Of a DNA stretch of 64,000 nucleotides, positions 35,821 through 55,508 are shown piece by piece (position 1 is the stretch's first letter; every line of letters begins with the position of its first letter). The stretch lies in the NCBI GenBank assembly GCA_963663275.1, contig OY760183.1, positions 2,496,001 to 2,560,000 of the forward strand, read 5' to 3'. The DNA comes from Chloroflexota bacterium. Its GTDB lineage: Bacteria > Chloroflexota > UBA11872 > VXOZ01. A program made the translations under genes and the position numbers. Under the pieces are notes generated by a model, which saw nothing but the letters and a program-made list of their open reading frames with translations, searched no databases and had not been told where the DNA came from.

Positions 35821-36849
35821 CTATTCGACCCCCACGGGGCGGGAGCGTGCCAGCCGGTCGGCATAGTTGCGCCTGTAGTAGTCGTCGTACCCGCCGGACT
35901 TGACCGCGCGCCACCAATCCTCATTATCCACGTACCACTTGACCGTCTCCGCCAGCGCCTGCCGGAACGTGTACTCCGGCTGCCAGCCGAGCGCCTCCAG
36001 GCGCGCTGAGTCCAGGCTGTAGCGGTAGTCGTGTCCCGGCCGGTCCTCGATCAGCCGCATCAGCGACCGGGGCTTGCCGAGAATGTCCAGGATGCCCTCC
36101 GCCAGAGCCAGTGTATTGACTTCGAACTCCACGCCGACGTTGTACGCAGTGCCCGGCTCGCCCTCGCGCAGCACCAGGTCGATGCCCGCGCAGTGGTCTG
36201 TGACGTACATGTAGTGGCGCACCGCCTGGCCTTCACCGTAGATCGGCAGCGGCTCGTCGTCGATGGCATTGGTCACAAAAACCGGCAGCGCCTTCTCCGG
36301 GTACTGGCGGGGGCCGATGGTATTCGCCCCGCGCGTAACCGTCACAGGCAGGCCGAAACTGGTGAAGTAGGAGAGCGCCAGCAGTTCGCCGCCCGCCTTG
36401 CTGGCCGCATAGGGATTGCGGGGCGCAAGACGCGCGTCCTCAGTCGCGGCGCCCACCGGCACGTGGCCGTAGACCTCGTCCGTGCTCACGTGGACGATGC
36501 GCCGCACGTCGTGGGCGCGGGCCGCCTCCATGAGCACACGCACGCCCTCCACGTTCGTCCGCACGAAGGCCGCCGGATCCATCACCGAGCGGTCTACGTG
36601 CGTTTCCGCGGCAAAGTTCACCAGCGCGTCGCAGCCGGCCAGCGCCTCGTTCACCGCCTCAGTGTCGCAGACGTCGGCGCGCACGAACCGGTAGCGTGGG
36701 TCGTCCGCGCAAGCGGCCAGATTCGCCGGATTGCCGGCGTACGTCAGCTTGTCCAGCGCCACCACGCGCGCGTCAGGATAGCGCGCCAGCACGTAGCGCA
36801 CGTAGTTGCTGCCGATGAAGCCAGCCGCGCCCGTTATCAGTATCCGCAT
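35821..36849 (-). CDS. rfbB: dTDP-glucose 4,6-dehydratase
   Basis: TGAAGFIGSN, DKLTYAGN, AAETHVDRS, HVSTDEVYG, PYAASK, DRPGHDYRY. Confidence 0.95.
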   Translation of the reverse strand: MRILITGAAGFIGSNYVRYVLARYPDARVVALDKLTYAGNPANLAACADDPRYRFVRADVCDTEAVNEALAGCDALVNFAAETHVDRSVMDPAAFVRTNVEGVRVLMEAARAHDVRRIVHVSTDEVYGHVPVGAATEDARLAPRNPYAASKAGGELLALSYFTSFGLPVTVTRGANTIGPRQYPEKALPVFVTNAIDDEPLPIYGEGQAVRHYMYVTDHCAGIDLVLREGEPGTAYNVGVEFEVNTLALAEGILDILGKPRSLMRLIEDRPGHDYRYSLDSARLEALGWQPEYTFRQALAETVKWYVDNEDWWRAVKSGGYDDYYRRNYADRLARSRPVGVE

Positions 36850-37983: not shown

Positions 37984-39684
37984 ATGCTCACCGTACGGCG
38001 TCTCTACATTCTGGCCGCGTCCTTCATCGGACTTCTTCTCTTCATGCAGGGCGGCAGCGCCTTGCTGCGCCTGGTGTTTCTGCTCGCCTCGCCGGACCCC
38101 GCGTTCGCCGTGGGCAACGACTGGTGGCGCGAAGACCTCAGCGTGGGGCTGGCGCTCATGGCCGTGGGCGCGCCGCTGTGGATCGGCCACTGGATTTGGG
38201 CGCAACGCCTGGCCCGCGACCCGGCGGAAGCGGCCAGCGCGCTCCGCTCGCTCTACTTTTTGGGCGTGCTGGGTTTCACGATCATCCGCACGGCCGGGGG
38301 AGCGGGGGACGCCCTCACCTACCCGTTCGCGCGTCTTGCCGGCGGTTCACCCTCGGCATTCACCCTTTCCGACAGCTTGTCCGCGCTGATCATCTTTGGG
38401 CTCATGTGGGTCTACCACGTCCGCCAACGCCCGCCCGCTGCGCTGCAATCCGGGGCCGCGGCGACCATTTCACGCTGGTACTGGTACGCCGTCTCTTTTT
38501 GCGGCGTCGGCATTGTGGCCACGTCGATCATTCCCCTGCTTTCATCGCTCATCGAGAGGCTGGCGGGGGCGGACCCGGTGAACCTCGGTTGGTGGCAATT
38601 GCCGGTGGCGAACAACATCGCGTGGCTCATCGTGGGCGGTATCGGCTGGACGTACCACTGGGCCGCTATCCAGCGCCAAACCGCGGACGCGCAAAGCCCG
38701 GAGTTGCGCTCAGTCTTGCGCAAGGTCTATCTTTACGCCATGGTCGGCTCCGGCGCGGCGGGCGCGCTCCTGGCGATAGGCCGCATACTCTACCTGGCTC
38801 TGCTCGGCGTGATGGGCGCGGTGGACGCGCAGCACGACCTCATCGAAAACGCGGCGTGGGTCGCGCCCACGCTGCTCGTCGCCGCCACCGGCTGGTTCTA
38901 CCACCGCTACCACCTGCGGCGGGACGCGGCGCTGGTAGCGGAACTGCCGCGCCAGGCGACCATCCGCCGCACCTATGCGTATCTCTTGTCCGCGATTGGG
39001 TTGGGGCTGCTGGCCTTCGGCGTGTTCGGCATGTTGCGCCTGGTGATTGGCATTCTGACCGGCCAGGCGGAGAGAACTGACCTGCCGGAACACTTCCTGC
39101 AGCAACAGCTTAGCCTCTACGTGACGTTGCTGGTGGTGGGCCTGGCCGCATGGGTGTGGTACTGGCGCCAGATACAGCGGCAACTGGACGCGGACACCAG
39201 CGGTGAGGAGCGCGCCTCGCTCGTGCGCCGCATCTACCTCTTCGTGGTGTCATCCGCCAGCGTGATCGGCCTGGTGGTCGCGCTGGGGACGCTGCTCTAC
39301 GAGGGGCTGCGCTCCGTGCTGGGCATTAGCTCCGCCAACGCGCTCGTAGACGCGCTGAACATCCACGTCAGCGTGGCGCTCATAGCCGTGGCTCTGCTGC
39401 TGTACCACGTGCGCTTCCTCCGGCAGGGCCTCAGGGCCGGAATGGAGAAGAAGACGGATGCGGTATCGGTAGAAGAGGCCCCGGCAGCGGAAAGCGTTAC
39501 GGAAGACGCAAGCGGCCCGCAGAGCCTGGTAGTCACGCTTTCCGGCGGTGACTTGCAGAGCGCCCGCGCGCTCATCGAACAGAGCGCCCTGCCTGAGGGC
39601 ACGCGAATCTCTCTGCATGAGAGCGCATTGTCAGCGGATGAAGTCCAGCGCCGGTTGCTGAGCGCGCCGGAAGCGGACGAATAG
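37984..39684 (+). CDS. DUF5671-type repeat membrane protein
   Basis: Repeated RRLY/RKVYLY/RRTYAY/RRIYLF units, each followed by TM pairs with WxxHW motifs; AGGAG RBS. Confidence 0.75.
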   Translation: MLTVRRLYILAASFIGLLLFMQGGSALLRLVFLLASPDPAFAVGNDWWREDLSVGLALMAVGAPLWIGHWIWAQRLARDPAEAASALRSLYFLGVLGFTIIRTAGGAGDALTYPFARLAGGSPSAFTLSDSLSALIIFGLMWVYHVRQRPPAALQSGAAATISRWYWYAVSFCGVGIVATSIIPLLSSLIERLAGADPVNLGWWQLPVANNIAWLIVGGIGWTYHWAAIQRQTADAQSPELRSVLRKVYLYAMVGSGAAGALLAIGRILYLALLGVMGAVDAQHDLIENAAWVAPTLLVAATGWFYHRYHLRRDAALVAELPRQATIRRTYAYLLSAIGLGLLAFGVFGMLRLVIGILTGQAERTDLPEHFLQQQLSLYVTLLVVGLAAWVWYWRQIQRQLDADTSGEERASLVRRIYLFVVSSASVIGLVVALGTLLYEGLRSVLGISSANALVDALNIHVSVALIAVALLLYHVRFLRQGLRAGMEKKTDAVSVEEAPAAESVTEDASGPQSLVVTLSGGDLQSARALIEQSALPEGTRISLHESALSADEVQRRLLSAPEADE

Positions 39685-42746: not shown

Positions 42747-44222
42747 CTACCCCTTGATCACCCCAATTGGCCGCACCCGCGCCACCACTCGTGCAATGCC
42801 GGATCGCTCCACCACGCCCACCACCTCCCGCGCGTCCTTATAGGCCTCGCTCGCCTCCTCCGCCAGACCGGCCTTGCTCTGGGCGCGCACGACGATGCCC
42901 TTGTCGCGCAAAACCCGCACGAGGTCTACGCCCTTCAGCTTCTTCTTGGCCGCGCCCCGGCTCAGCACCCGGCCCGCACCGTGGCACGTCGAGGCAAAGG
43001 TCTCGCGCCGCGCCCGCTCTTCACCAACCAGAATATACGAGTAGCGCCCCATGTCGCCGGGAATGAGCACCGGCTGGCCGACCGCGCGGTACCTGGCGGG
43101 CACCTGTGGGTCGCCGGCCGGCAGGGCGCGGGTCGCGCCCTTGCGGTGCACGCAAAGATCCATTTCCTTGCCGTTCACGCGATGGCGTTCCATCTTGGCG
43201 ATATTGTGCGCCACGTCGTAGACGACACCAACTTCGACCCCGGATTCCGACCGGTCGAGAACGTGCGCCAACGCCCGCCGCGTCCGCTCGGTAATCGCCT
43301 GGCGGTTGGCAAAGGCAAAGTTGGCCGCGGCGGCCATGGCGCCCAGGTACGCCTGGCCCTCCGGCGACCGGATCGGCGCGCAGGCCAACTGTCTATCGGG
43401 AAGCGTGATGCGGTACGTTTCCATCGCGCGCTGCATCACGCCGAGATACTCCTGGCAGACTTGGTGCCCCAGACCGCGCGAGCCGGTGTGGATAGACACC
43501 ATCACCTGGCCGAGTTCCGTAATGCCGAATGCGCGCGCGGCCTCTTCGTCCGCGATCGTCTCCACCACCTGCATTTCCAGGAAGTGGTTGCCGGAGCCGA
43601 GCGAACCAAGCTGCGGCCCGCCGCGCTGGCGCGCCCGGTCGCTGACCTTCGACGTGTCCGCTCCGGGCAGACACCCGCCGGACTCGATTGCGGTAAGGTC
43701 CTCGCGGCTGCCATGCCCGTTCTCCACCGCCCACGCCGCACCCTCGGCCAGAGCCCCTTCGATGTCGATTGCGGCGCCGCGTTTCCTCTTGCGGCCGCGT
43801 CCCAGGCCGGTGGGCACGTCACGGAACAATTGGTTGACGATTTCCGGCAGACTGCCCCGCACGGCGCGCTCGTGCAAGTTGGTGCGCAGCAGCCGCACGC
43901 CGCAATTTATGTCAAATCCCACGCCTCCCGGCGAGACCACGCCGTCGTCCGTGCGCATCGCCGCCACGCCGCCAATGGGAAAGCCGTAGCCCCAGTGAAT
44001 GTCCGGCATGGCGAGGGCGTGTCCCACGATGCCCGGCAGCGTGGCCATGTTCGCCACTTGCTGCACCGCCATGTCCCCGGCCATCGAGTCGATCATGGCC
44101 TCGTCGGCATAGATCAGCCCCGGCGCCCTCATGCCGTCCATGTAGTCGATCGGCAGTTCCCAGCGTACCGCGTCCCGTTGGCGCAGCACGCCGCGCCAGT
44201 TCTTGGGCGCTTTCTTTTCCAT
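42747..44222 (-). CDS. rtcB: RNA-splicing/repair ligase RtcB (archaeal/eukaryal type)
   Basis: MPDIHWGYGFPIGG, VGFDINCG, GSGNHFLE, HTGSRGLGH, AHNIA, HRKGATR, CHGAGR, AYKD. Confidence 0.96.
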   Translation of the reverse strand: MEKKAPKNWRGVLRQRDAVRWELPIDYMDGMRAPGLIYADEAMIDSMAGDMAVQQVANMATLPGIVGHALAMPDIHWGYGFPIGGVAAMRTDDGVVSPGGVGFDINCGVRLLRTNLHERAVRGSLPEIVNQLFRDVPTGLGRGRKRKRGAAIDIEGALAEGAAWAVENGHGSREDLTAIESGGCLPGADTSKVSDRARQRGGPQLGSLGSGNHFLEMQVVETIADEEAARAFGITELGQVMVSIHTGSRGLGHQVCQEYLGVMQRAMETYRITLPDRQLACAPIRSPEGQAYLGAMAAAANFAFANRQAITERTRRALAHVLDRSESGVEVGVVYDVAHNIAKMERHRVNGKEMDLCVHRKGATRALPAGDPQVPARYRAVGQPVLIPGDMGRYSYILVGEERARRETFASTCHGAGRVLSRGAAKKKLKGVDLVRVLRDKGIVVRAQSKAGLAEEASEAYKDAREVVGVVERSGIARVVARVRPIGVIKG

Positions 44223-44235
44223 GGCCGCTCTCCCG

Positions 44236-44700
44236 TTAGATGTCGAAGAGTACCTGTATCATCGTGCGCGTAGGCAAGACCGTGACCTCAAGTTGGTGGT
44301 ACGTCACCGCTTTGATCTCCACGCCTTCGACCGCGTCTTCGTCTTCGAGAACAACCCCAATAGCTGTGGCGGAGCAGCGCGGCGGGGCGCATTCCGCAAT
44401 GTCGAAAGCTCGCACCACCAGGCCGTCCACGCTGAACCGGAAGAGCAATTCCGCCAGCCAGTTGACCAGCAGGTCGAGCCACGTATCGCCATCGACCGCA
44501 ACCGGCTGTTCATCCGCCGGCCCGGTAATGCCGCCCGGGTCTTTGCCAAGCGAGATCGCGTACATGCCGCGAGCGGCGGCGGCAAATGCGGCGGCCGGCG
44601 TGGGCCCCCAGGCCCGCACGCCGACGTCGGCCGTATGCTCGATGCGCGCGTACCCGCTGTCGCTCGGCGGCGAAGCGCAACCCGCGTCAATCGTGTCCAT
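44236..44700 (-). CDS. Archease (RtcB activator)
   Basis: EHTADV, WLAELL, EIKAVTYHQL, C-terminal FDI. Confidence 0.93.
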   Translation of the reverse strand: MDTIDAGCASPPSDSGYARIEHTADVGVRAWGPTPAAAFAAAARGMYAISLGKDPGGITGPADEQPVAVDGDTWLDLLVNWLAELLFRFSVDGLVVRAFDIAECAPPRCSATAIGVVLEDEDAVEGVEIKAVTYHQLEVTVLPTRTMIQVLFDI

Positions 44701-47185
44701 GGTCGTGCGCGTGCAAGCGCCCTTGCAGGTGCGCCTTCGCGTGTTGAAAGACCTGCCGCACCGCGTTGTGGCGCTCGGCGTCCGCGCGGGTCGCCAGCGT
44801 ATCGAGCCAGGTCAGACCGCCGTCCAGCACGGTCATCATGTAGGTCGCGTCGCTGGGATTGAAGAGTTCCTGGTTGTCGGCCACCACGTACACCGGTGAG
44901 GTGTGCGCCGCCACGTTCACCACCCACGTGTGCTGTACTTCCAGCGAACTCACGCAGCGCGCCGCGATCCAGCCGCTGCCGCCGAGTTTCACGTCCCGGC
45001 TGACGCGGCTCGTCTTGCCGCCGTCGGCTACGGGTTGGGTGGCGACCACCGCGCCGTTGCAGACGATTTGCAGTTCGTGGAACGGCAGCACCGATTCCGC
45101 CCAGGCCTCGACCGTCAGCGTGCCGCCGCCGGCCGGCAGCTTGAGTTCATCGCCCGGCCGCTTGCCTTCCACGCGCACGTCGATCAGCGGCCCGCTGGTG
45201 GTAAACGTGCGCCCGCCGCGCACGGCCTGCGCCCACGAGTCGAAGGAGAAGTCATCCTGCAGCAGCGCGTACGTGCGCACCCCGCCAACCGGAATGGCGG
45301 CACTCATCTTATCCGTCCCACCCACGGCGGCCACGCGGTAGCCGTTGTTGAGGAAGCGGTACCACTCGTGTATGCCAAAGTTATCGATCGTAGGCGTAAA
45401 GTACTTCAATTCAACCGCGTCAACCTTGCCGAGCACGATTTCAGCCACCGCTTCGGTATAGGGATTGGGGAAGTGCGGGATGACCACCAGGCCGTCGCGC
45501 TCCCGTGCCCGGTCCGCCCACTCGCTCATGCTGCTCAGCACCGGGTCGCCCAGGTAGCTTTCACCCGGCCCGGCGGTGGTCATGGGGTACACCGGCTCAC
45601 CTTTCACGCCCAGCAAACTGATGTGCCCCAGCAGATGCTGCCGGTTCTCGGTGCCTACATAGACTACGGTATCGTCCCGGCTGACGCCGGAGACCTCGCC
45701 GGTGATGTCGGCGACGTTGGTATAGAGATCGCCCCATTGGGAGGCGAGGAGATTAATCAGATTGACACCCTCGGCCTGACCCTCCAGCCACGCCGTCTGG
45801 GGCGAGATGAAGTGCACGTGCGTATCGGCGGTCACCCAGCCTTGTTCACGCCAGTTCAGCGGCCGCGCCAGCTTGAGCGTAAGCTCCCGTTGGCCGGGCG
45901 CGATGGTGAGGCGTTTGCGCAAGGGCTGGTACTCAAAGCCCTTGAAAATCTCGACGAACACCTCGCCCACCGGCAGTTCGATCTGAAAAGTACCATCGAC
46001 GTAGGCGTACTGGGTCTCGCCCAGCTTGAGATCGCCCGCGTAGTCCTCGAACCAGTTGTTATTGACTTCATGCCGGTGGCCGTAGGGCGGGAAATACCGG
46101 CCGTCCGGCGCGCGGAAGTGGACGCGCGCCGCCGTGGGCTTGCCGCTGGCGGCGTCTTCCAGCCGCACGTGCAGCCACGCGCGCTCCGGCGTCAGGATTT
46201 CCACCCGCACCTTGCCGTCTCCGCTCGCGCTCACTCCCGACTCGTAGAGCGACTCCATCGGCACGGCGCGGCCGGCAACGTCCAACGTGGCGTCGGGACT
46301 GGCGGTCACGTCCACTATGAGGGACTTCTCGCCGGCGGCGTTCTCGGCCTCGCCCAGGCCCGGCGCATCGTCGGCAAGCCACGTGTCCGGATCGAAGGCC
46401 GGCACGGCGTACGTGCGCGCTAACGTGCCCAGGTCCACCGTTACCGGCGTCTCTTCCGGCGCGCCCTCCACTTCCTCCGGCAGCGCGATGCGAAAGCTCT
46501 CTAACCGGTTGTGGCGCAGCGGATGGTGCTTGCCGGTATAGAGCGTAATGCCCGCCACTACTACGTTCGTGCCGCCGGTTGACGCCAAGCGCAGCGATTC
46601 CACCGTCCGCTCCGGATGCGGATTCGGCAGGGCGTAGATCCAGTAATTGGAAGCGGTGCGCGCGCGCCGCATTTGCAGGCCCGTCTGCCAGTATCCCCAG
46701 GAGCCGCGCGGGTACGGCCCGTTGATGTCCGCGGGCAGCATTCCGCTTTGCGGCCGGGCGGCGAACGCCAGTTGGCCCCAGGCAACGGTGGAGTTGATCT
46801 CGAACCGCCGCCGGATCGTCTGCGACTCCGCGCCGCCGTCGGCGTAGTTTATGGTGTATTCCGCGAGCGCCTCGCCGGGTTGCACCACCATGCCGCTCAT
46901 GCCGGGTTGCGAGGATACGCCGGGCTCCGCATCGCAGAAGTGGGCAAAGACGACGTGTGTCACGCCGCCGCGTCCCACCGGCACGGCTGCGCCCTCTTCG
47001 CTCAAGCGCACCCAACTGGCCGCGGCGTCCCCGGCGCCGAGCGTGAACGGAATCCCCCAGAATTCCTGCTCGCCGTCAGGCAGCTTTGCCAGATCTTGCG
47101 CCACGGGACCGTCCCAGGAAGCCAGTTCGTCTTGCCGCGCGGCATTGCGCACAGATGTCAAATCGAGCGGAATAGCGTGAACCAT
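44687..47185 (-). CDS. CehA/McbA-family PHP-like metallohydrolase with N-terminal beta-rich extension
   Basis: KGFEY, WVTADTHVH, GTENR...GHISLLG, VIPHFP, WYRFLNNGYRVAAVGGTD, GRTFTTSGP, AHTSPVYV. Confidence 0.8.
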   Translation of the reverse strand: MVHAIPLDLTSVRNAARQDELASWDGPVAQDLAKLPDGEQEFWGIPFTLGAGDAAASWVRLSEEGAAVPVGRGGVTHVVFAHFCDAEPGVSSQPGMSGMVVQPGEALAEYTINYADGGAESQTIRRRFEINSTVAWGQLAFAARPQSGMLPADINGPYPRGSWGYWQTGLQMRRARTASNYWIYALPNPHPERTVESLRLASTGGTNVVVAGITLYTGKHHPLRHNRLESFRIALPEEVEGAPEETPVTVDLGTLARTYAVPAFDPDTWLADDAPGLGEAENAAGEKSLIVDVTASPDATLDVAGRAVPMESLYESGVSASGDGKVRVEILTPERAWLHVRLEDAASGKPTAARVHFRAPDGRYFPPYGHRHEVNNNWFEDYAGDLKLGETQYAYVDGTFQIELPVGEVFVEIFKGFEYQPLRKRLTIAPGQRELTLKLARPLNWREQGWVTADTHVHFISPQTAWLEGQAEGVNLINLLASQWGDLYTNVADITGEVSGVSRDDTVVYVGTENRQHLLGHISLLGVKGEPVYPMTTAGPGESYLGDPVLSSMSEWADRARERDGLVVIPHFPNPYTEAVAEIVLGKVDAVELKYFTPTIDNFGIHEWYRFLNNGYRVAAVGGTDKMSAAIPVGGVRTYALLQDDFSFDSWAQAVRGGRTFTTSGPLIDVRVEGKRPGDELKLPAGGGTLTVEAWAESVLPFHELQIVCNGAVVATQPVADGGKTSRVSRDVKLGGSGWIAARCVSSLEVQHTWVVNVAAHTSPVYVVADNQELFNPSDATYMMTVLDGGLTWLDTLATRADAERHNAVRQVFQHAKAHLQGRLHAHDHGHD

Positions 47186-51382: not shown

Positions 51383-52423
51383 CTAATAAGGCGCGTGATC
51401 GCCGCCGAGCCAGCGGTACGGGCGCGGGTAGAGCGTGAGCGAGCGGTCTTCCAGCGGCAGTGCCAGGGGGACGGAACCCCACAGGGACGAGTACTTGGCG
51501 GCGATGGCGGCTTCGAGCGACTGGCGCAGGTCGTGTCCCGACACGGCCATTGCCGCGCCATGCTCGACGGCGGCGATGAACGACAGGATCGAGCTTGCCA
51601 GGTAGCCGTATTGCGGCCAGGCGAACGGCGTGAACGCCCGCTCGGACTTGACGCGCGCGCCGTTGGCGTCAAAGCCCTGGTAGATGTCCATTTCGTCGCC
51701 CCAGTCCCAGCGCAGCAGCGCGTCGTCCGTCCAGACGTCAACGCCGCGTGAGGGCGTCGGCTCCCCAAAGACGGGCACGTCGAAACCGGCGCTCATAGTG
51801 AAGCGGCCGTTGATGATGAGGCCGGTGTCCTCGTCCGCTTCCAGGGCTGCCCGCGGCTTCCCCCACGCCACCACCTCGGTAATCTCGGCCTGAGTGAGCA
51901 ACCTGAGCACGGCGACGTGCTGGCAGCCGCCGCCGGATATCTCGCCGCCCCAGCCATGCACCGACGCGCCTCGCACCGCGCCAAGATCGCCGCGCCGCAG
52001 CCAACCCGCGGCCTCCTGCACGTCGGCGCGCGCGCATTGCAGGTTGCCGCCGTGGAAGACGACGCCGCGCTCCTGGCAGGTGTCGATCATCGCGTCCACG
52101 TCGGCGAGCCGCGCGCCAATAGGCTTTTCGCTGGAGACGCCCCGCACCCCCGCCTGCGCCGAGGCAATCACCGCGTCCTTGATGAACTTGCCGGGCAGAA
52201 CGGTGACGGCAAGATCGGGAACCTCGCCCATCTGCTGGTACATCTCCTCGGCGTCCTTGTAGAGCCTCTTGACGCCGAACCGCTCCCCTACGGCTTGCCG
52301 CCTCTCGTCGTTGTACTCGGCAATGGCGACGATCTCAGTATTGTCAAGCACGCTATAGAACTTAGCGTACTCTTGCCCCATCCGACCGCAGCCAATGAGC
52401 GCCACCCTGAGCTTTGCTTCCAC
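51383..52423 (-). CDS. Gfo/Idh/MocA family oxidoreductase
   Basis: VALIGCGRMG, SEKPI; AAGGAG RBS favours GTG at 52423. Confidence 0.85.
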   Translation of the reverse strand: MEAKLRVALIGCGRMGQEYAKFYSVLDNTEIVAIAEYNDERRQAVGERFGVKRLYKDAEEMYQQMGEVPDLAVTVLPGKFIKDAVIASAQAGVRGVSSEKPIGARLADVDAMIDTCQERGVVFHGGNLQCARADVQEAAGWLRRGDLGAVRGASVHGWGGEISGGGCQHVAVLRLLTQAEITEVVAWGKPRAALEADEDTGLIINGRFTMSAGFDVPVFGEPTPSRGVDVWTDDALLRWDWGDEMDIYQGFDANGARVKSERAFTPFAWPQYGYLASSILSFIAAVEHGAAMAVSGHDLRQSLEAAIAAKYSSLWGSVPLALPLEDRSLTLYPRPYRWLGGDHAPY

Positions 52424-52786
52424 CAGTACTCCTTTCATTCGCCCTCAACGCTGTCCACTGTGAAGAATTGATCCTCGATTACGTTCCGCAGGTCTGCTAC
52501 AGTCCGAGTCATACTGGCGGCAGGGAATCTGAGTATGGTCGCCTCCGCCCCCTGGCTACAGTGTTCATTTGTAGCGCCCACGTATCGAATCTCGGTGCGG
52601 CTTCCCCGATCTACCGTCGGCAACGAGCGTAGAAGCCGCCGGGTCCGCTTGTCGAATGCAATGCCTTGCAAGCCATTGTGCCGGGCGCGGATTGGGGTAG
52701 GACTAGCTCTCTGTCAATTATTGCATCGCAAACATGTTACAATTCAGTAGGTGAAGGCAATTGGCTCGTCGCAGGAAAAGAGGCTT

Positions 52787-53827
52787 ATGCAACTCCGTAA
52801 ACTATCCAGCGGGCTGAGGGCCCAATTCCGTGGGACGGACGTCCACAGCCGCGTGAATCGCTTCGATGGATGGCTGGACAGGGCGCGCGTTGAGGACGCC
52901 GGCCCGGCGGATTACGACCACACCGAAACCGTCAAGGAATATTACGACCTATGCGGCGAGATCATGGAGTTCGGTTGGGGTGAATCCCTCCACTTTGCGC
53001 CGCTGTCGCCCCAGGAGAGCCTCGAGGAATCCAAGATCCGTCACCAGCGGCTGATGATCGCCAAGTTGGAGTTGCGCGAGGGCATGACGGTGATCGACGT
53101 CGGTTGCGGGGTCGGCGGCCCGCTGCGCCGCGTCGTCCGGGAGTCCGGTGTCAGGGTAGTCGGGGTCAATAGTAACGAAATCCAGTTGGAGAAGGCAAAG
53201 TCTTGGGACGCCGCGGCGGGACTCGACCACATGACCGGCTACCTCGCGTGCAGTTTCATGGACATGGACGCCATCGCGAACGACACATTTGACCGGGGAT
53301 ACGCGATTGAATCGACGTGCCACGCGCCGGATAAGGCGGGCGCGTTCGCCGAGATCTACCGCGTGCTGAAACCCGGGGCCCTCTTCTGGGGCCAGGAAAT
53401 GTGCATGACGAGCACGTTCGATCCCGGTGACGAGCGGCACCGGGCTCTCAAGGAAGAACTGATGCACGGCATCGCGCTCAAGGATATAGCGACGATTGAC
53501 GAGGTGGACCGTGACCTCGAAACGGCGGGATTTGAGGTCATCGAGGGGCTGGACTTGGCCGTTGGGGAGAACGGTCCAACCACGCCGTGGTATCTGCCCA
53601 TGGAAACCCGGCACGGAAAGCTCGGCAACGCCTTTGTCAGAATGCCGCTGGGCCGCAAGGCGGTTTTCGGGGCATCCAGGCTGGCCGAGGTTCTGGGGGT
53701 GTTCCCGGCGGGCTCAGCCCGTGTCGTCAATCTGCTGGACAATACTGCCAACGCCTACGTCGCCGGCGGCAAGACCGGGATCTTTACGCCGTTGTATTGC
53801 TTCCTGGCTCGTAAACCGTCTTCGTAG
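52787..53827 (+). CDS. Sterol C-24 methyltransferase-like SAM-dependent methyltransferase (ERG6/SMT1 family)
   Basis: YYDL..EIMEFGWGESLHFAP (region I), IDVGCGVGGPLR (II), YAIESTCHAP (III), YRVLKPG (IV), PWYLP, C-terminal GGKTGIFTPLYCFLARKP. Confidence 0.85.
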   Translation: MQLRKLSSGLRAQFRGTDVHSRVNRFDGWLDRARVEDAGPADYDHTETVKEYYDLCGEIMEFGWGESLHFAPLSPQESLEESKIRHQRLMIAKLELREGMTVIDVGCGVGGPLRRVVRESGVRVVGVNSNEIQLEKAKSWDAAAGLDHMTGYLACSFMDMDAIANDTFDRGYAIESTCHAPDKAGAFAEIYRVLKPGALFWGQEMCMTSTFDPGDERHRALKEELMHGIALKDIATIDEVDRDLETAGFEVIEGLDLAVGENGPTTPWYLPMETRHGKLGNAFVRMPLGRKAVFGASRLAEVLGVFPAGSARVVNLLDNTANAYVAGGKTGIFTPLYCFLARKPSS

Positions 53828-53965
53828 GTCGCTTGGGTTTCCACCCTGGCAATCGGCCCAAAGTCAAAGCCGCCGTCCTCGAGCAGGTCATTCAACGCCT
53901 GCATTGATGAAGGTGATTTGTTCAGGATGTAGCCGAGCGCATCTGTGGCAGCATTCCGCTCAAGC
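53815..53965 (-). pseudogene. Truncated N-terminal remnant of a probable PD-(D/E)XK nuclease-like gene
   Basis: Minus frame reads NAATDALGYILNKSPSSMQALNDLLEDGGFDFGPIARVETQATYEDG, then runs into the 3' end of the methyltransferase; family assignment from recall only. Confidence 0.4.
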
Positions 53966-54140
53966 CGACCGTGACCCGGTGCGTGCGCTGGCGCGCGAAG
54001 GGATGTCCGGAGTTGCTCTCGACCGTGCGCGCTTCTGTGAGATGCTACCACAGGGCGATAGTCCGGCGGCTCAAAGATCAGATTCCCGAAACTGCCACCA
54101 GTCAGAACTCCGGCGTGAGGGTTTTCGACTGTATCCAATT

Positions 54141-54216
54141 TGGTGGACCCGATCGGGGTCGAACCGACGACCTCGTGAATGCCATTCACGCGCTCTCCCA
54201 ACTGAGCTACGGGCCC
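54141..54216 (-). tRNA. tRNA-Ala (GGC)
   Basis: GGGCCCGTAGCTCAGTTGGGAGAGCGCGTGAATGGCATTCACGAGGTCGTCGGTTCGACCCCGATCGGGTCCACCA; cloverleaf, G3:U70, encoded CCA. Confidence 0.97.
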
Positions 54217-54229
54217 GCATTCGCCTTTT

Positions 54230-54258
54230 ATTGTAGCATTGTACGGGAGTCGCGTAAA
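54230..54258 (-). promoter_or_regulatory. Putative sigma70 promoter of tRNA-Ala
   Basis: TTTACG, 17 bp, TACAAT with extended TG. Confidence 0.6.
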
Positions 54259-54306
54259 CGCGCCGCCCAGCAGGCCGAGAGGCGAGCGGCAAAAAGGAGT
54301 TGTGCG

Positions 54307-55359
54307 ATGGCTGCCTATCGTGTTGGTATCGTCGGCTGCACCGGCATCGCCAGTGCGCCGGCGCGAGCGTTGTCCCATCCCATCCTCGGAACGGTTGCGC
54401 CGCATTCCCACGCGGCGGGCTACGACCAGGTACCCGCCACCGAAGTCGTAGCCGTGTGCGACCTGGTGCCGGAGCGCACCCAGGATTTCGTCGCCAAGTG
54501 GGAGCAGCGGTGGCCGGGAATTACCCAGTACCAGGACTACCGGGAAATGCTCGCACGCGAGAATCTGGACATCGTCAGCGTGGTGACGTCCGACCACCGC
54601 CACGCAGACATCACCGTGGACGCGGCCGAGGCCGGCGCGCGGGCGATCTTTTGCGAAAAGCCCCTGGCCACGTCGCTCGCCGACGCCGACCGCATGATTG
54701 CGGCCATCGAGAAGCGCGGCGTTTTCCTCTCCGTGGATCATAGCCGCCGCTGGCAACCTCAGTGGTATGAAGCCCGCGCGGCGATTCGCAACGGCGCGAT
54801 TGGCCCGGTGCGCACGGTGGTCGGGAGACTCGGCGGGGCGCGCGCCATGCTCTTTCGCAACGGCACGCACCTGATGGACGCGATCTGCTTCTTTGCCGAT
54901 GGCGAACCGGAGTGGCTGACGGCGCGCTATGACGACAATTTCGCCGGTTACGGCCCGCGCTACGCGGGTGACGGCGGGCACGACCCAAGCACCGACCCCG
55001 GCGCGTGCGTCTTTCTCCTGTTCTCCAACGGCGTGCGCGCGTTCTACATCGGCTCGCAGAACGTCGCCACCGGCTTTGAGATTGAGGTGACAGGCGAGAA
55101 AGGCCGGATACGGTTGGGCAACGCCGTCGCCGCCGAAATCGAAACCGCCGACGGCGTGCAGCCGCTGCCGGAGGCGTCTGCCACGCTCTCCGGCAGCGCC
55201 GCCGCCATCGAGGAACTGATTGCTTTGGTTGAGGGCCGGGGCACACTGCCCCAGATTTCGGGTCCCTACGACGGCAGGCGAGTCGTGGAGGTGCTCATAG
55301 GCGCGGTGCAGTCCGCCGCCGACGGCGGCGCGCCGCGCACCTTTCCCGTGCGGGAGTAA
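54307..55359 (+). CDS. Gfo/Idh/MocA family oxidoreductase
   Basis: VGIVGCTGIA, IFCEKPLA, VDHSRRW, NGTHLMD; AGGAG RBS. Confidence 0.9.
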   Translation: MAAYRVGIVGCTGIASAPARALSHPILGTVAPHSHAAGYDQVPATEVVAVCDLVPERTQDFVAKWEQRWPGITQYQDYREMLARENLDIVSVVTSDHRHADITVDAAEAGARAIFCEKPLATSLADADRMIAAIEKRGVFLSVDHSRRWQPQWYEARAAIRNGAIGPVRTVVGRLGGARAMLFRNGTHLMDAICFFADGEPEWLTARYDDNFAGYGPRYAGDGGHDPSTDPGACVFLLFSNGVRAFYIGSQNVATGFEIEVTGEKGRIRLGNAVAAEIETADGVQPLPEASATLSGSAAAIEELIALVEGRGTLPQISGPYDGRRVVEVLIGAVQSAADGGAPRTFPVRE

Positions 55360-55508
55360 CTGTCCCCACATGAGGGCCGGGCCGGCTGGCGCAAGCGGCC
55401 CGGCCCGGCATCTTTGACCTGACCCGAGAGCCGCCGTACAATGCAGAACGTGTATTCACCCATTGGCACAGCCAACCATGCCCGCAGCGCATTGAAGAAA
55501 GGAACGCC

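Follow-up and report, generated by a model that had tools for sequence, protein, structure and literature searches.

The 64,000 nt window analyzed here (positions 2,496,001 to 2,560,000 of contig OY760183.1, assembly GCA_963663275.1, from a bacterium of the phylum Chloroflexota) carries on its plus strand, at 52787..53827, a gene for a methyltransferase of the sterol methyltransferase (SMT) family. It is a single open reading frame (ORF) of 346 aa, running from an ATG at 52787 to the stop codon at 53827. An alternative in-frame start, GTG at 52751, would give a protein of 358 aa, and the ATG is favored because homologs measure 343–354 aa. Alignments with fungal ERG6 and plant SMT1-like and SMT2 proteins place all four SMT signature regions: Region I, EFGWGESLHF (52967..52996, residues 61–70); Region II, DVGCGVGGP, which binds S-adenosylmethionine (SAM) and has invariant columns in the alignments (53096..53122, residues 104–112); Region III, IESTCHAP (53306..53329, residues 174–181), where Glu175 corresponds to yeast E195; and Region IV, LKPG (53366..53377, residues 194–197), where Gly197 corresponds to yeast G217. 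The Sterol_MT_C domain (Pfam PF08498) covers residues 287–344 (53645..53818), and the C-terminal motif GGKTGIFTPLYCFLARKP is also present. A preliminary description, made from the sequence alone, had quoted these motifs and placed the protein among sterol methyltransferases; all of the motifs were found in the translated ORF, and PF08498 is matched well above its gathering score (57.2 against 21.7 bits, E = 1.9e-15), together with class I methyltransferase domains. In a six-frame search of the genome the ORF scored 60.5 bits on PF08498. None of 25 listed NCBIfam models for other types of methyltransferase reached its cut-off, the best being 52 bits against 550, which agrees with the family assignment. 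The protein belongs to a divergent clade that is here given the name 'SLHF', after its Region I motif GWGESLHF.

Brown and Welander list 25 residues that are conserved in all functional SMTs (2025 preprint, 10.64898/2025.12.19.695621). These were mapped onto the protein through a named ERG6 of Cladosporium, with an offset to the yeast numbering of 9 at both motif anchors, the five C-terminal positions being placed by means of alignment A1. Twenty-three of the 25 are kept (Y74, G84, W85, G86, H90, F91, D125, G127, G129, G132, P133, G147, Q154, D189, E195, G217, G268, W286, G333, L341, G352, F357 and P359), and two are changed, T78 to Gly57 and F89 to Leu68. The position of yeast Y81 is occupied by Met60, and both Gly57 and Met60 fall just upstream of the EFGWGESLHF stretch. 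The Region I motif 84-GWGxxFHF-91 is not matched, the sequence being GWGESLHF with Leu at F89; this Leu is found in all 10 clade rows and in three sister rows of the alignment, compared with Phe in 88% of 99 other rows, so that the replacement of Region I aromatics by Met and Leu noted in the preliminary description is borne out. At yeast-numbered position 249 the protein has Ile229, where fungal ERG6 has Asp. The same preprint likewise gives Asp for the yeast SMT at this position, describes Gly249 as necessary and not sufficient for propylation (24-isopropyl), and reports a G249I mutant that kept C28 production and in which C29 and C30 sterols were undetectable. The Gly249 of propylating bacterial SMTs is replaced here, and with Ile at this position the formation of a 24-isopropyl side chain is not predicted.

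The residue pattern bears on the explanation that the gene encodes an ordinary sterol C-24 methyltransferase, which would convert delta24 sterols of a host, such as desmosterol, into 24-methyl(ene) products, an ERG4-like reductase then saturating the new double bond. Such a role would agree with the PF08498 domain and the 23 retained residues, whereas the changes at T78, Y81 and F89 sit in the sterol-binding Region I and count against it. Since these pocket positions are replaced, the substrate or the site of methylation is probably unlike that in the conversion of desmosterol to a 24-methylene sterol. Two positions invariant in functional SMTs (T78 and F89) being changed, the C-24 methylation of usual sterols implied by the preliminary description is not upheld.

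In a maximum-likelihood tree with 112 rows (IQ-TREE quick search, LG+C20; three rows above 440 aa were left out), a branch 0.6 long with an SH-aLRT value of 100 stands between the 13 SLHF rows and the remaining 99. Across this long branch lie the Cladosporium ERG6, a rice SMT1-like protein, a grass SMT2, an algal transcript and a 'sterol methyltransferase [Candidatus Poriferisocius]'. The tree is unrooted, and a sister position is indistinguishable in it from an earlier offshoot. The protein is 30–40% identical to fungal ERG6, rice SMT1-like and Lolium SMT2, and Regions I–IV and the C-terminal domain are recognizable in all of them; it differs from ERG6, SMT1 and SMT2 in grouping with none of them, in the replaced Region I aromatics and in lacking the longer N-terminus of the eukaryotic enzymes. 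The gene had been called 'eukaryote-type', a label that does not survive the phylogeny: as judged by sequence, the SLHF clade is a distinct bacterial branch of the SMT family, set apart from canonical bacterial SMTs as well as from ERG6, SMT1 and SMT2. The separation from all named SMTs is a further point against an ordinary C-24 activity.

The branch is also far from rare, and any implication of rarity in the preliminary description is not upheld. A word-indexed protein search returned 2931 proteins at E <= 1e-3, and the best 120 of these share 75–100% identity with the query across no less than 92% of its length, all with PF08498; the two that are named among them are titled 'class I SAM-dependent methyltransferase [Chloroflexi bacterium]'. 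In contigs representing one genome per species, a relative is encoded in 315 of 344 candidate stretches. The best 80 of the 315 (72–90% identity) bear the titles Dehalococcoidia (57), Chloroflexota/Chloroflexi (18), SAR202 cluster (2), Acidimicrobiia/-ales (2) and Rhodospirillaceae (1). Four of four runs labelled sponge metagenome, from four studies, contain contigs matching the ORF at 85% or more (178, 342, 40 and 80 contigs), including 8, 25, 3 and 3 contigs at 99% or more; the flanks of the ORF have next to no cover in these runs, from which no inference is drawn. Scanning 1.84 billion representatives with HMMER yielded 6972 hits at E <= 1e-3; apart from a handful at 49–82%, those of full length are no more than 29–46% identical. 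Region I reads YYDLVTDFYE[YFW]GWGxSFHF in most full-length representatives, and the form YYDLC[GSN]E[FI]MxFGWGESLHF was found among them in the SLHF clade alone.

The ORF is under purifying selection: in pairwise comparisons with 77 clade members the median dN/dS is 0.25, and no pair exceeds 0.40. An AlphaFold2 model built from a 35-row alignment has a mean pLDDT of 91.6 and a pTM of 0.90. Its solved Foldseek neighbors are AtmM/RebM, TleD, MitM, SpnF, cyclopropane synthases and prenyl-diphosphate C-methyltransferases (TM-score 0.54–0.66 on query length), several of which methylate C=C bonds. Such olefin C-methyltransferases, which add the methyl group of SAM to a C=C bond, include TleD (5gm1), the geranyl diphosphate C-methyltransferase 3vc2, the farnesyl diphosphate methyltransferase 9sm1 and the cyclopropane synthases (Foldseek probability 1.00, TM-score 0.59–0.66 on query length); unlike the protein described here, these have no Sterol_MT_C domain, and sequence identities are 15–26%. 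A sequence search of the PDB returned generic relatives alone, e.g., RebM (3bus, E = 2.6e-21), and neither these nor the Foldseek matches include a true SMT structure; the preprint states that none has been reported so far. The predicted fold is compatible with a SAM-dependent methyltransferase; which substrate is used cannot be read from it.

The genome is a single contig of 3,531,182 bp that is 99.57% complete. Six-frame family searches of this closed sequence gave no match to PF13243 or PF13249 (SQHop_cyclase_C and _N), PF08491 (squalene epoxidase) or PF00494 (squalene/phytoene synthase), and no FA_hydroxylase of the ERG3/ERG25 type. None of the 17 genomes of the genus has a cyclase. The organism had been taken to lack sterol synthesis, and the single contig confirms this for cyclase, squalene epoxidase and squalene/phytoene synthase alike. 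The closed genome proves the absence of a cyclase, which is new for this window.

Genes of steroid-type families do occur elsewhere in the same genome (G000 below; other G numbers denote related genomes). A tandem pair of ERG4_ERG24 genes occupies G000:C1:589232-591480, coding for proteins of 388 and 379 aa that score 121 and 128 bits in a family search with no match in any of 14 control genomes; among solved structures both are closest to the delta14-sterol reductase 4quv (E = 3e-33 and 3e-34). The two reductase homologs (region G000:C1:588925-592742) align to the Pfam model from about position 73–77 of 432, the N-terminal part being absent, and are matched by no NCBIfam model; directly upstream of the pair, on the same strand, is a gene for a 275 aa class I (UbiE-like) methyltransferase. 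The 3beta-HSD family PF01073 was rejected as a sterol marker, as the search also matches 14 of 14 control genomes and is uninformative. Locus A (2.0757–2.0833 Mb) consists of four consecutive genes: an MMPL/RND transporter of 854 aa with Sterol-sensing and Patched domains of the sterol-sensing domain (SSD) type; a GPP34-cytochrome P450 fusion of 675 aa (G000:C1:2078511-2080538), with CYP51 as its best solved matches (E = 6e-22); a Rieske/KshA_C protein of 355 aa, with KshA as its best solved match (E = 1e-20); and a flavin adenine dinucleotide (FAD) protein of the amine-oxidase type (452 aa). Locus B (283–294 kb) has two further SSD-RND genes, two further fusions of GPP34 (GOLPH3-like) with P450 (G000:C1:286095-288227 and 288673-290943) and, between these two, a Rieske remnant (G000:C1:288224-288583; tblastn pieces of 65% and 76% identity), which points to a second, decayed module copy. 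The three fusions in the genome span 675–756 aa. A fourth RND paralog at 2.242 Mb is indicated by tblastn alone (65% identity), the SSD being confirmed in the other three. A stand-alone P450 (G000:C1:3366345-3367586, 314 bits) was rejected as a pathway member, as its best matches are 7wzl and P450s of the CYP97, CYP4 and CYP102 types, not CYP51.

In relatives, the SMT gene and these families are commonly neighbors. When 1049 ORFs from 81 SMT loci were clustered, the SMT was accompanied by a GPP34-P450 fusion in 60 loci, an SSD-RND transporter in 59 (directly upstream and on the same strand), a Rieske protein in 50 and an FAD oxidoreductase in 38. In G066 the gene order is RND, SMT, P450, Rieske, FAD, PPK2, ERG4/24, ERG4/24, and genus g10 has 11 genomes in which 5.5–8.8 kb separate the SMT from the two reductase genes. 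An independent set of 35 loci came from one metagenome scan, and in the 22 of these that are at least 9 kb long the adjacent genes were a P450 fusion in 12, Rieske in 5, RND in 4 and FAD in 3, the P450 fusion being the most constant neighbor in both sets. At the window's own locus none of the four module genes stands beside the SMT, and no sterol genes lie within about 16 kb on either side. The absence of adjacent sterol genes, remarked upon earlier, is therefore true of the window and not of most relatives, which embed the SMT in a steroid-type cluster.

Co-occurrence was surveyed in 98 genomes of the class, counting SMTs of at least 70% identity as SLHF-type and those of 38–46% as canonical-type. 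The SLHF type is present in 35 genomes, the canonical type in 25 and both in 19. ERG4/24 genes free of in-frame stops occur in 31 of the 35 SLHF-positive genomes (missing in G045 and G084, which are 79% and 80% complete, and in G048 and G050), and ERG4/24 matches of any kind in eight of the 63 SLHF-negative genomes, where they contain stops (G002, G013, G035), are partial (G015, G037) or are stop-free (G012, G023 and G014, the last copy being cut by a contig end). Rieske matches were found in 33 of 35 positive versus 11 of 63 negative genomes, several of the latter being fragments; because the genomes are related to one another, all these counts are descriptive and are not a statistical test. 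One in-frame TGA is present in each of the Rieske matches of G011, G013, G015, G035 and G045; it may fall where the match extends too far at the N-terminus, be a sign of a pseudogene or be a recoded codon. Within the genus, six of 16 congeners have the SMT, and all seven SMT-positive genomes carry at least two stop-free reductase genes. In SMT-negative members the reductases contain stops (G002 and G013), are reduced to a fragment (G015) or are absent (five genomes), a decay series in which the SMT was lost together with decaying sterol-type reductases. G027, a cyclase-free genome from a different genus of the class, encodes a canonical-type SMT (YEFGWGQSFHF) directly followed by a full-length ERG4/ERG24 of 458 aa (424 bits; G027:C1:1641678-1645982); G001, G012 and G016 also have full-length copies of this kind. 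The association of SMTs with ERG4/ERG24 reductases, including the pair in cyclase-free G027, would suit ordinary C-24 methylation, as does a published precedent, the functional SMT from a metagenome-assembled genome (MAG) of Chlamydiae without other sterol genes (PMC10070321). On the other side, the presence of both SMT types in 19 genomes argues for different roles, and in view of this, of the long branch and of the Region I changes we regard ordinary C-24 methylation as an unlikely, if still serious, explanation.

A cyclase is encoded in 25 of the 35 SLHF-positive genomes and absent from the other 10, which are all seven of genus g1 and all three of genus g4. Three of 38 cyclases were checked (G066, G050 and G075), and these are squalene-hopene cyclases, which score 722–770 bits on TIGR01507 (cut-off 431) and reach 251–274 bits on the model for oxidosqualene cyclases, against a cut-off of 851. 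HpnE and HpnH adjoin all three, and in G066 HpnC and HpnD as well. The hopanoid operon of G066 borders on dxs and a polyprenyl synthase, and no part of such an operon is present in the window's genus. Since the cyclases of relatives are of this type, the methylated olefin could instead be that of a non-steroid triterpenoid, hopanoids included (for example squalene, or diploptene with its isopropenyl group), with the neighboring transporter acting as a hopanoid-type pump. The RND transporters match the HpnN model better than that of the sterol transporter BstA (114 and 45 bits, both far below the cut-offs), and SMT-like enzymes of Botryococcus reportedly methylate squalene and botryococcene. 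Set against this, the gene and its partners are intact in the 10 cyclase-free genomes, squalene synthase is also missing from the window's genome, the transporter falls far short of the HpnN cut-offs (TIGR03480, 114 bits against 752; NF052374, 61 against 1100), and in G066 the SMT module and the hpn operon are about 640 kb apart. The window's genome has neither an HpnN equivalog nor a squalene-hopene cyclase of the hpn set. To our knowledge, the ERG4/ERG24, KshA-like Rieske and CYP51-like P450 families belong to steroid and not to hopanoid chemistry. A hopanoid or other non-steroid substrate therefore appears distinctly improbable.

We favor the reading, at about even odds, that the SLHF gene encodes a SAM-dependent olefin C-methyltransferase, most likely acting on a sterol-like polycyclic lipid that is imported and not made by the organism. 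The observations behind it are the family membership, the separation of the clade, the residue changes, the purifying selection, the missing triterpenoid genes, and the co-occurrence and linkage with steroid-type genes; from these we infer that the enzyme is active and that its substrate is of sterol type and imported. In the proposed scheme, the lipid would be taken up through RND/MMPL transporters with a sterol-sensing domain, the predicted SMT would methylate its olefin using SAM, and the dispersed partners, namely the GPP34-P450 fusions distantly like CYP51, the KshA-like Rieske oxygenase and the FAD oxidoreductase, together with the two double-bond reductases of the ERG4/ERG24 family, may act on the same compound. 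The presence in the genome of sterol-type reductases, SSD transporters, P450s and a KshA-like oxygenase makes an external sterol-like substrate more plausible. The suggestion in the preliminary description that sterols or another isoprenoid may be alkylated by an organism that does not make them is upheld in so far as an external sterol-like substrate is, with steroid-type genes present and a cyclase absent, the most economical reading.

Several points weigh against it. The two substitutions at conserved positions recall the preprint cited above, in which seven of 11 SMTs inactive in vitro deviate at one or more conserved residues. A six-frame search found no steroid uptake system of the Mce/MlaD type in the genome. 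The resemblance of the P450 fusion to CYP51 is weak (81 bits, one fusion searched), and the transporter, as noted, is closer to HpnN than to BstA. No module gene at all is present in 10 of the 22 metagenome loci, and ERG4/24 is nearby in none of the 22. G048 and G050 have the SMT with Rieske and ERG4/24 both absent, and conversely G012 and G023 have reductases without an SLHF-type SMT. To these are added the cyclases of 25 SLHF-positive genomes and the non-independence of the genomes surveyed. A more specific proposal is that the clade may methylate host-derived sterols at a side-chain olefin other than delta24(25)/24(28), for example at the terminal carbon to give 26-methyl (aplysterol-type) products, a reaction to which no enzyme is assigned; this we consider a long shot.

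The surroundings of the gene in the window differ from those of the module. Upstream is a divergent gene for a GFO/IDH/MocA oxidoreductase (51383..52438, minus strand) and downstream, on the minus strand, a tRNA-Ala (GGC; 54141..54216), so that the gene is monocistronic by arrangement, as had been proposed. A second GFO/IDH/MocA oxidoreductase gene is listed on the plus strand at 53971..55359; the listed start overlaps the tRNA, and the true start is probably near 54307. A RidA-like gene follows. A 538 aa minus-strand ORF (53755-55371) that crosses the tRNA and shares sequence with the genuine GFO gene was rejected as a high-G+C artefact. The promoter-like sequence attributed to the gene is in part confirmed: an extended -10-like element, TGTTACAAT, lies on the plus strand at 52735..52743, 43 nt upstream of the ATG, and TGnTACAAT is invariant in four of four genomes with the same type of locus, in an aligned stretch with a mean column identity of 60%; a consensus promoter scan called no full -35/-10 promoter at this element.

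Comparison with congeners shows that the ORF has moved. The SMT stands beside the Rieske gene in G006, G008 and G009, and away from it, at the vWA-GFO locus, in G000, G001, G011 and G016. Homology between relocated and in-module copies begins at the ATG (52787/8) and stops near 53818, and from 53814–53816 onward the sequence again aligns with that of the congeners G005 and G010, which have no SMT, in a conserved element of about 140 nt (53814..53956, between the SMT stop codon and the tRNA-Ala) that marks the right junction of the relocated ORF. This element is 86–87% identical in G005 and G010 and has no match to an Rfam family, the sole Rfam match being the neighboring tRNA. In Locus A the slot between the RND and P450 genes is about 280 nt; no SMT remnant was found in it, nor at the vWA-GFO locus of SMT-less G005, G010 and G002. 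In G000 the current site is about 470 kb from the module locus. The limits of homology at both ends indicate that little more than the ORF itself came to lie downstream of a new, conserved promoter-like element, and this relocation, read from aligned sequences, is a new finding for this window.

A gene standing alone and off-module, here and in 10 of the 22 metagenome loci, with changes at residues otherwise invariant and a patchy distribution in its genus (six of 16 congeners), might have lost its lipid methyltransferase activity or have adopted an unrelated small-molecule substrate, its association with steroid genes being historical. This would be hard to reconcile with the purifying selection, the intact SAM-binding motif and 23 of 25 functional residues, the conservation of the promoter-like element at the new locus, and the loss or decay of the SMT in company with the reductases, not alone; we judge it very improbable.

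The favored reading, methylation of an imported sterol-like lipid, can be set beside known systems. Functional bacterial SMTs were described by Brown et al. (2023; PMC10070321), who give eight of 10 symbiont and 12 of 14 environmental SMTs as active, 13 of the 24 tested as linked to an oxidosqualene cyclase, and an active one from a Chlamydiae MAG without other sterol genes. Their data also include a contig from A. aerophoba with two ERG6 homologs, 35.2% and 42.4% identical to yeast ERG6. With these SMTs and those of the preprint (10.64898/2025.12.19.695621) the protein described here shares the class I methyltransferase and Sterol_MT_C domains, a bacterial origin and a sponge-associated setting and, with the one from the Chlamydiae MAG, a genome that likewise lacks sterol synthesis genes. 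Canonical bacterial SMTs differ in lying on the other side of the long branch, the SLHF clade having changes at T78, Y81, F89 and G249, and the cyclase linkage of 13 of 24 enzymes has no counterpart in the window's genome, which has no oxidosqualene cyclase. Kelly et al. (2022; PMC9531527, accessible part) reported SMT1/ERG6 and TM7SF2/ERG24 as enriched in MAGs from Ircinia, partly as doublets and with Dehalococcoidia included, a parallel in sponge symbionts to the gene families found here. The core cluster in that part of the paper is ERG24-CYP51-lanosterol synthase, in contrast to the SSD-RND, GPP34-P450, KshA-like Rieske oxygenase and reductase pair found here with no cyclase of any type, and the SMT clade is not distinguished there. 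A literature search, whose coverage did not extend to preprint supplements, found no description of the SLHF clade or of its gene set in cyclase-less Chloroflexota, and in 'Marine sponges as Chloroflexi hot spots' the words sterol, steroid and cholesterol do not occur.

Steranes with alkylated side chains serve as fossil markers for eukaryotes and early sponges, a use that bacterial SMTs already complicate. SLHF is a large, conserved SMT branch in abundant sponge-associated Chloroflexota, and the closed genome shows that it persists under selection without any triterpenoid cyclase, which raises the question of the remodeling of host sterols by symbionts, and of its chemistry. Ile249 predicts that no 24-isopropyl biomarker would come from this branch, which helps in reading SMT counts in metagenomes. 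Should the methylation of host sterols at another side-chain olefin be true, abundant sponge symbionts of the Dehalococcoidia/SAR202 type that make no sterols would help to build unconventional sponge sterols, the steranes of which are read as animal biomarkers.

Other parts of the window hold genes separate from this subject. On the minus strand, at 42747-44700, a gene for an RtcB RNA ligase (491 aa, 567 bits) is immediately preceded by an archease gene in the same orientation, and an ORF of 832 aa at 44687-47185 (minus strand) has no Pfam match. A 3Beta_HSD/NAD-epimerase match of 56 bits was found by six-frame search on the minus strand at 36379-36840, within an open frame of 352 aa; as the overlapping plus-strand ORF of 389 aa has no Pfam match, the true gene here is probably that on the minus strand. 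At 37984-39684, on the plus strand, a protein of 566 aa is encoded that has four DUF5671 repeats.

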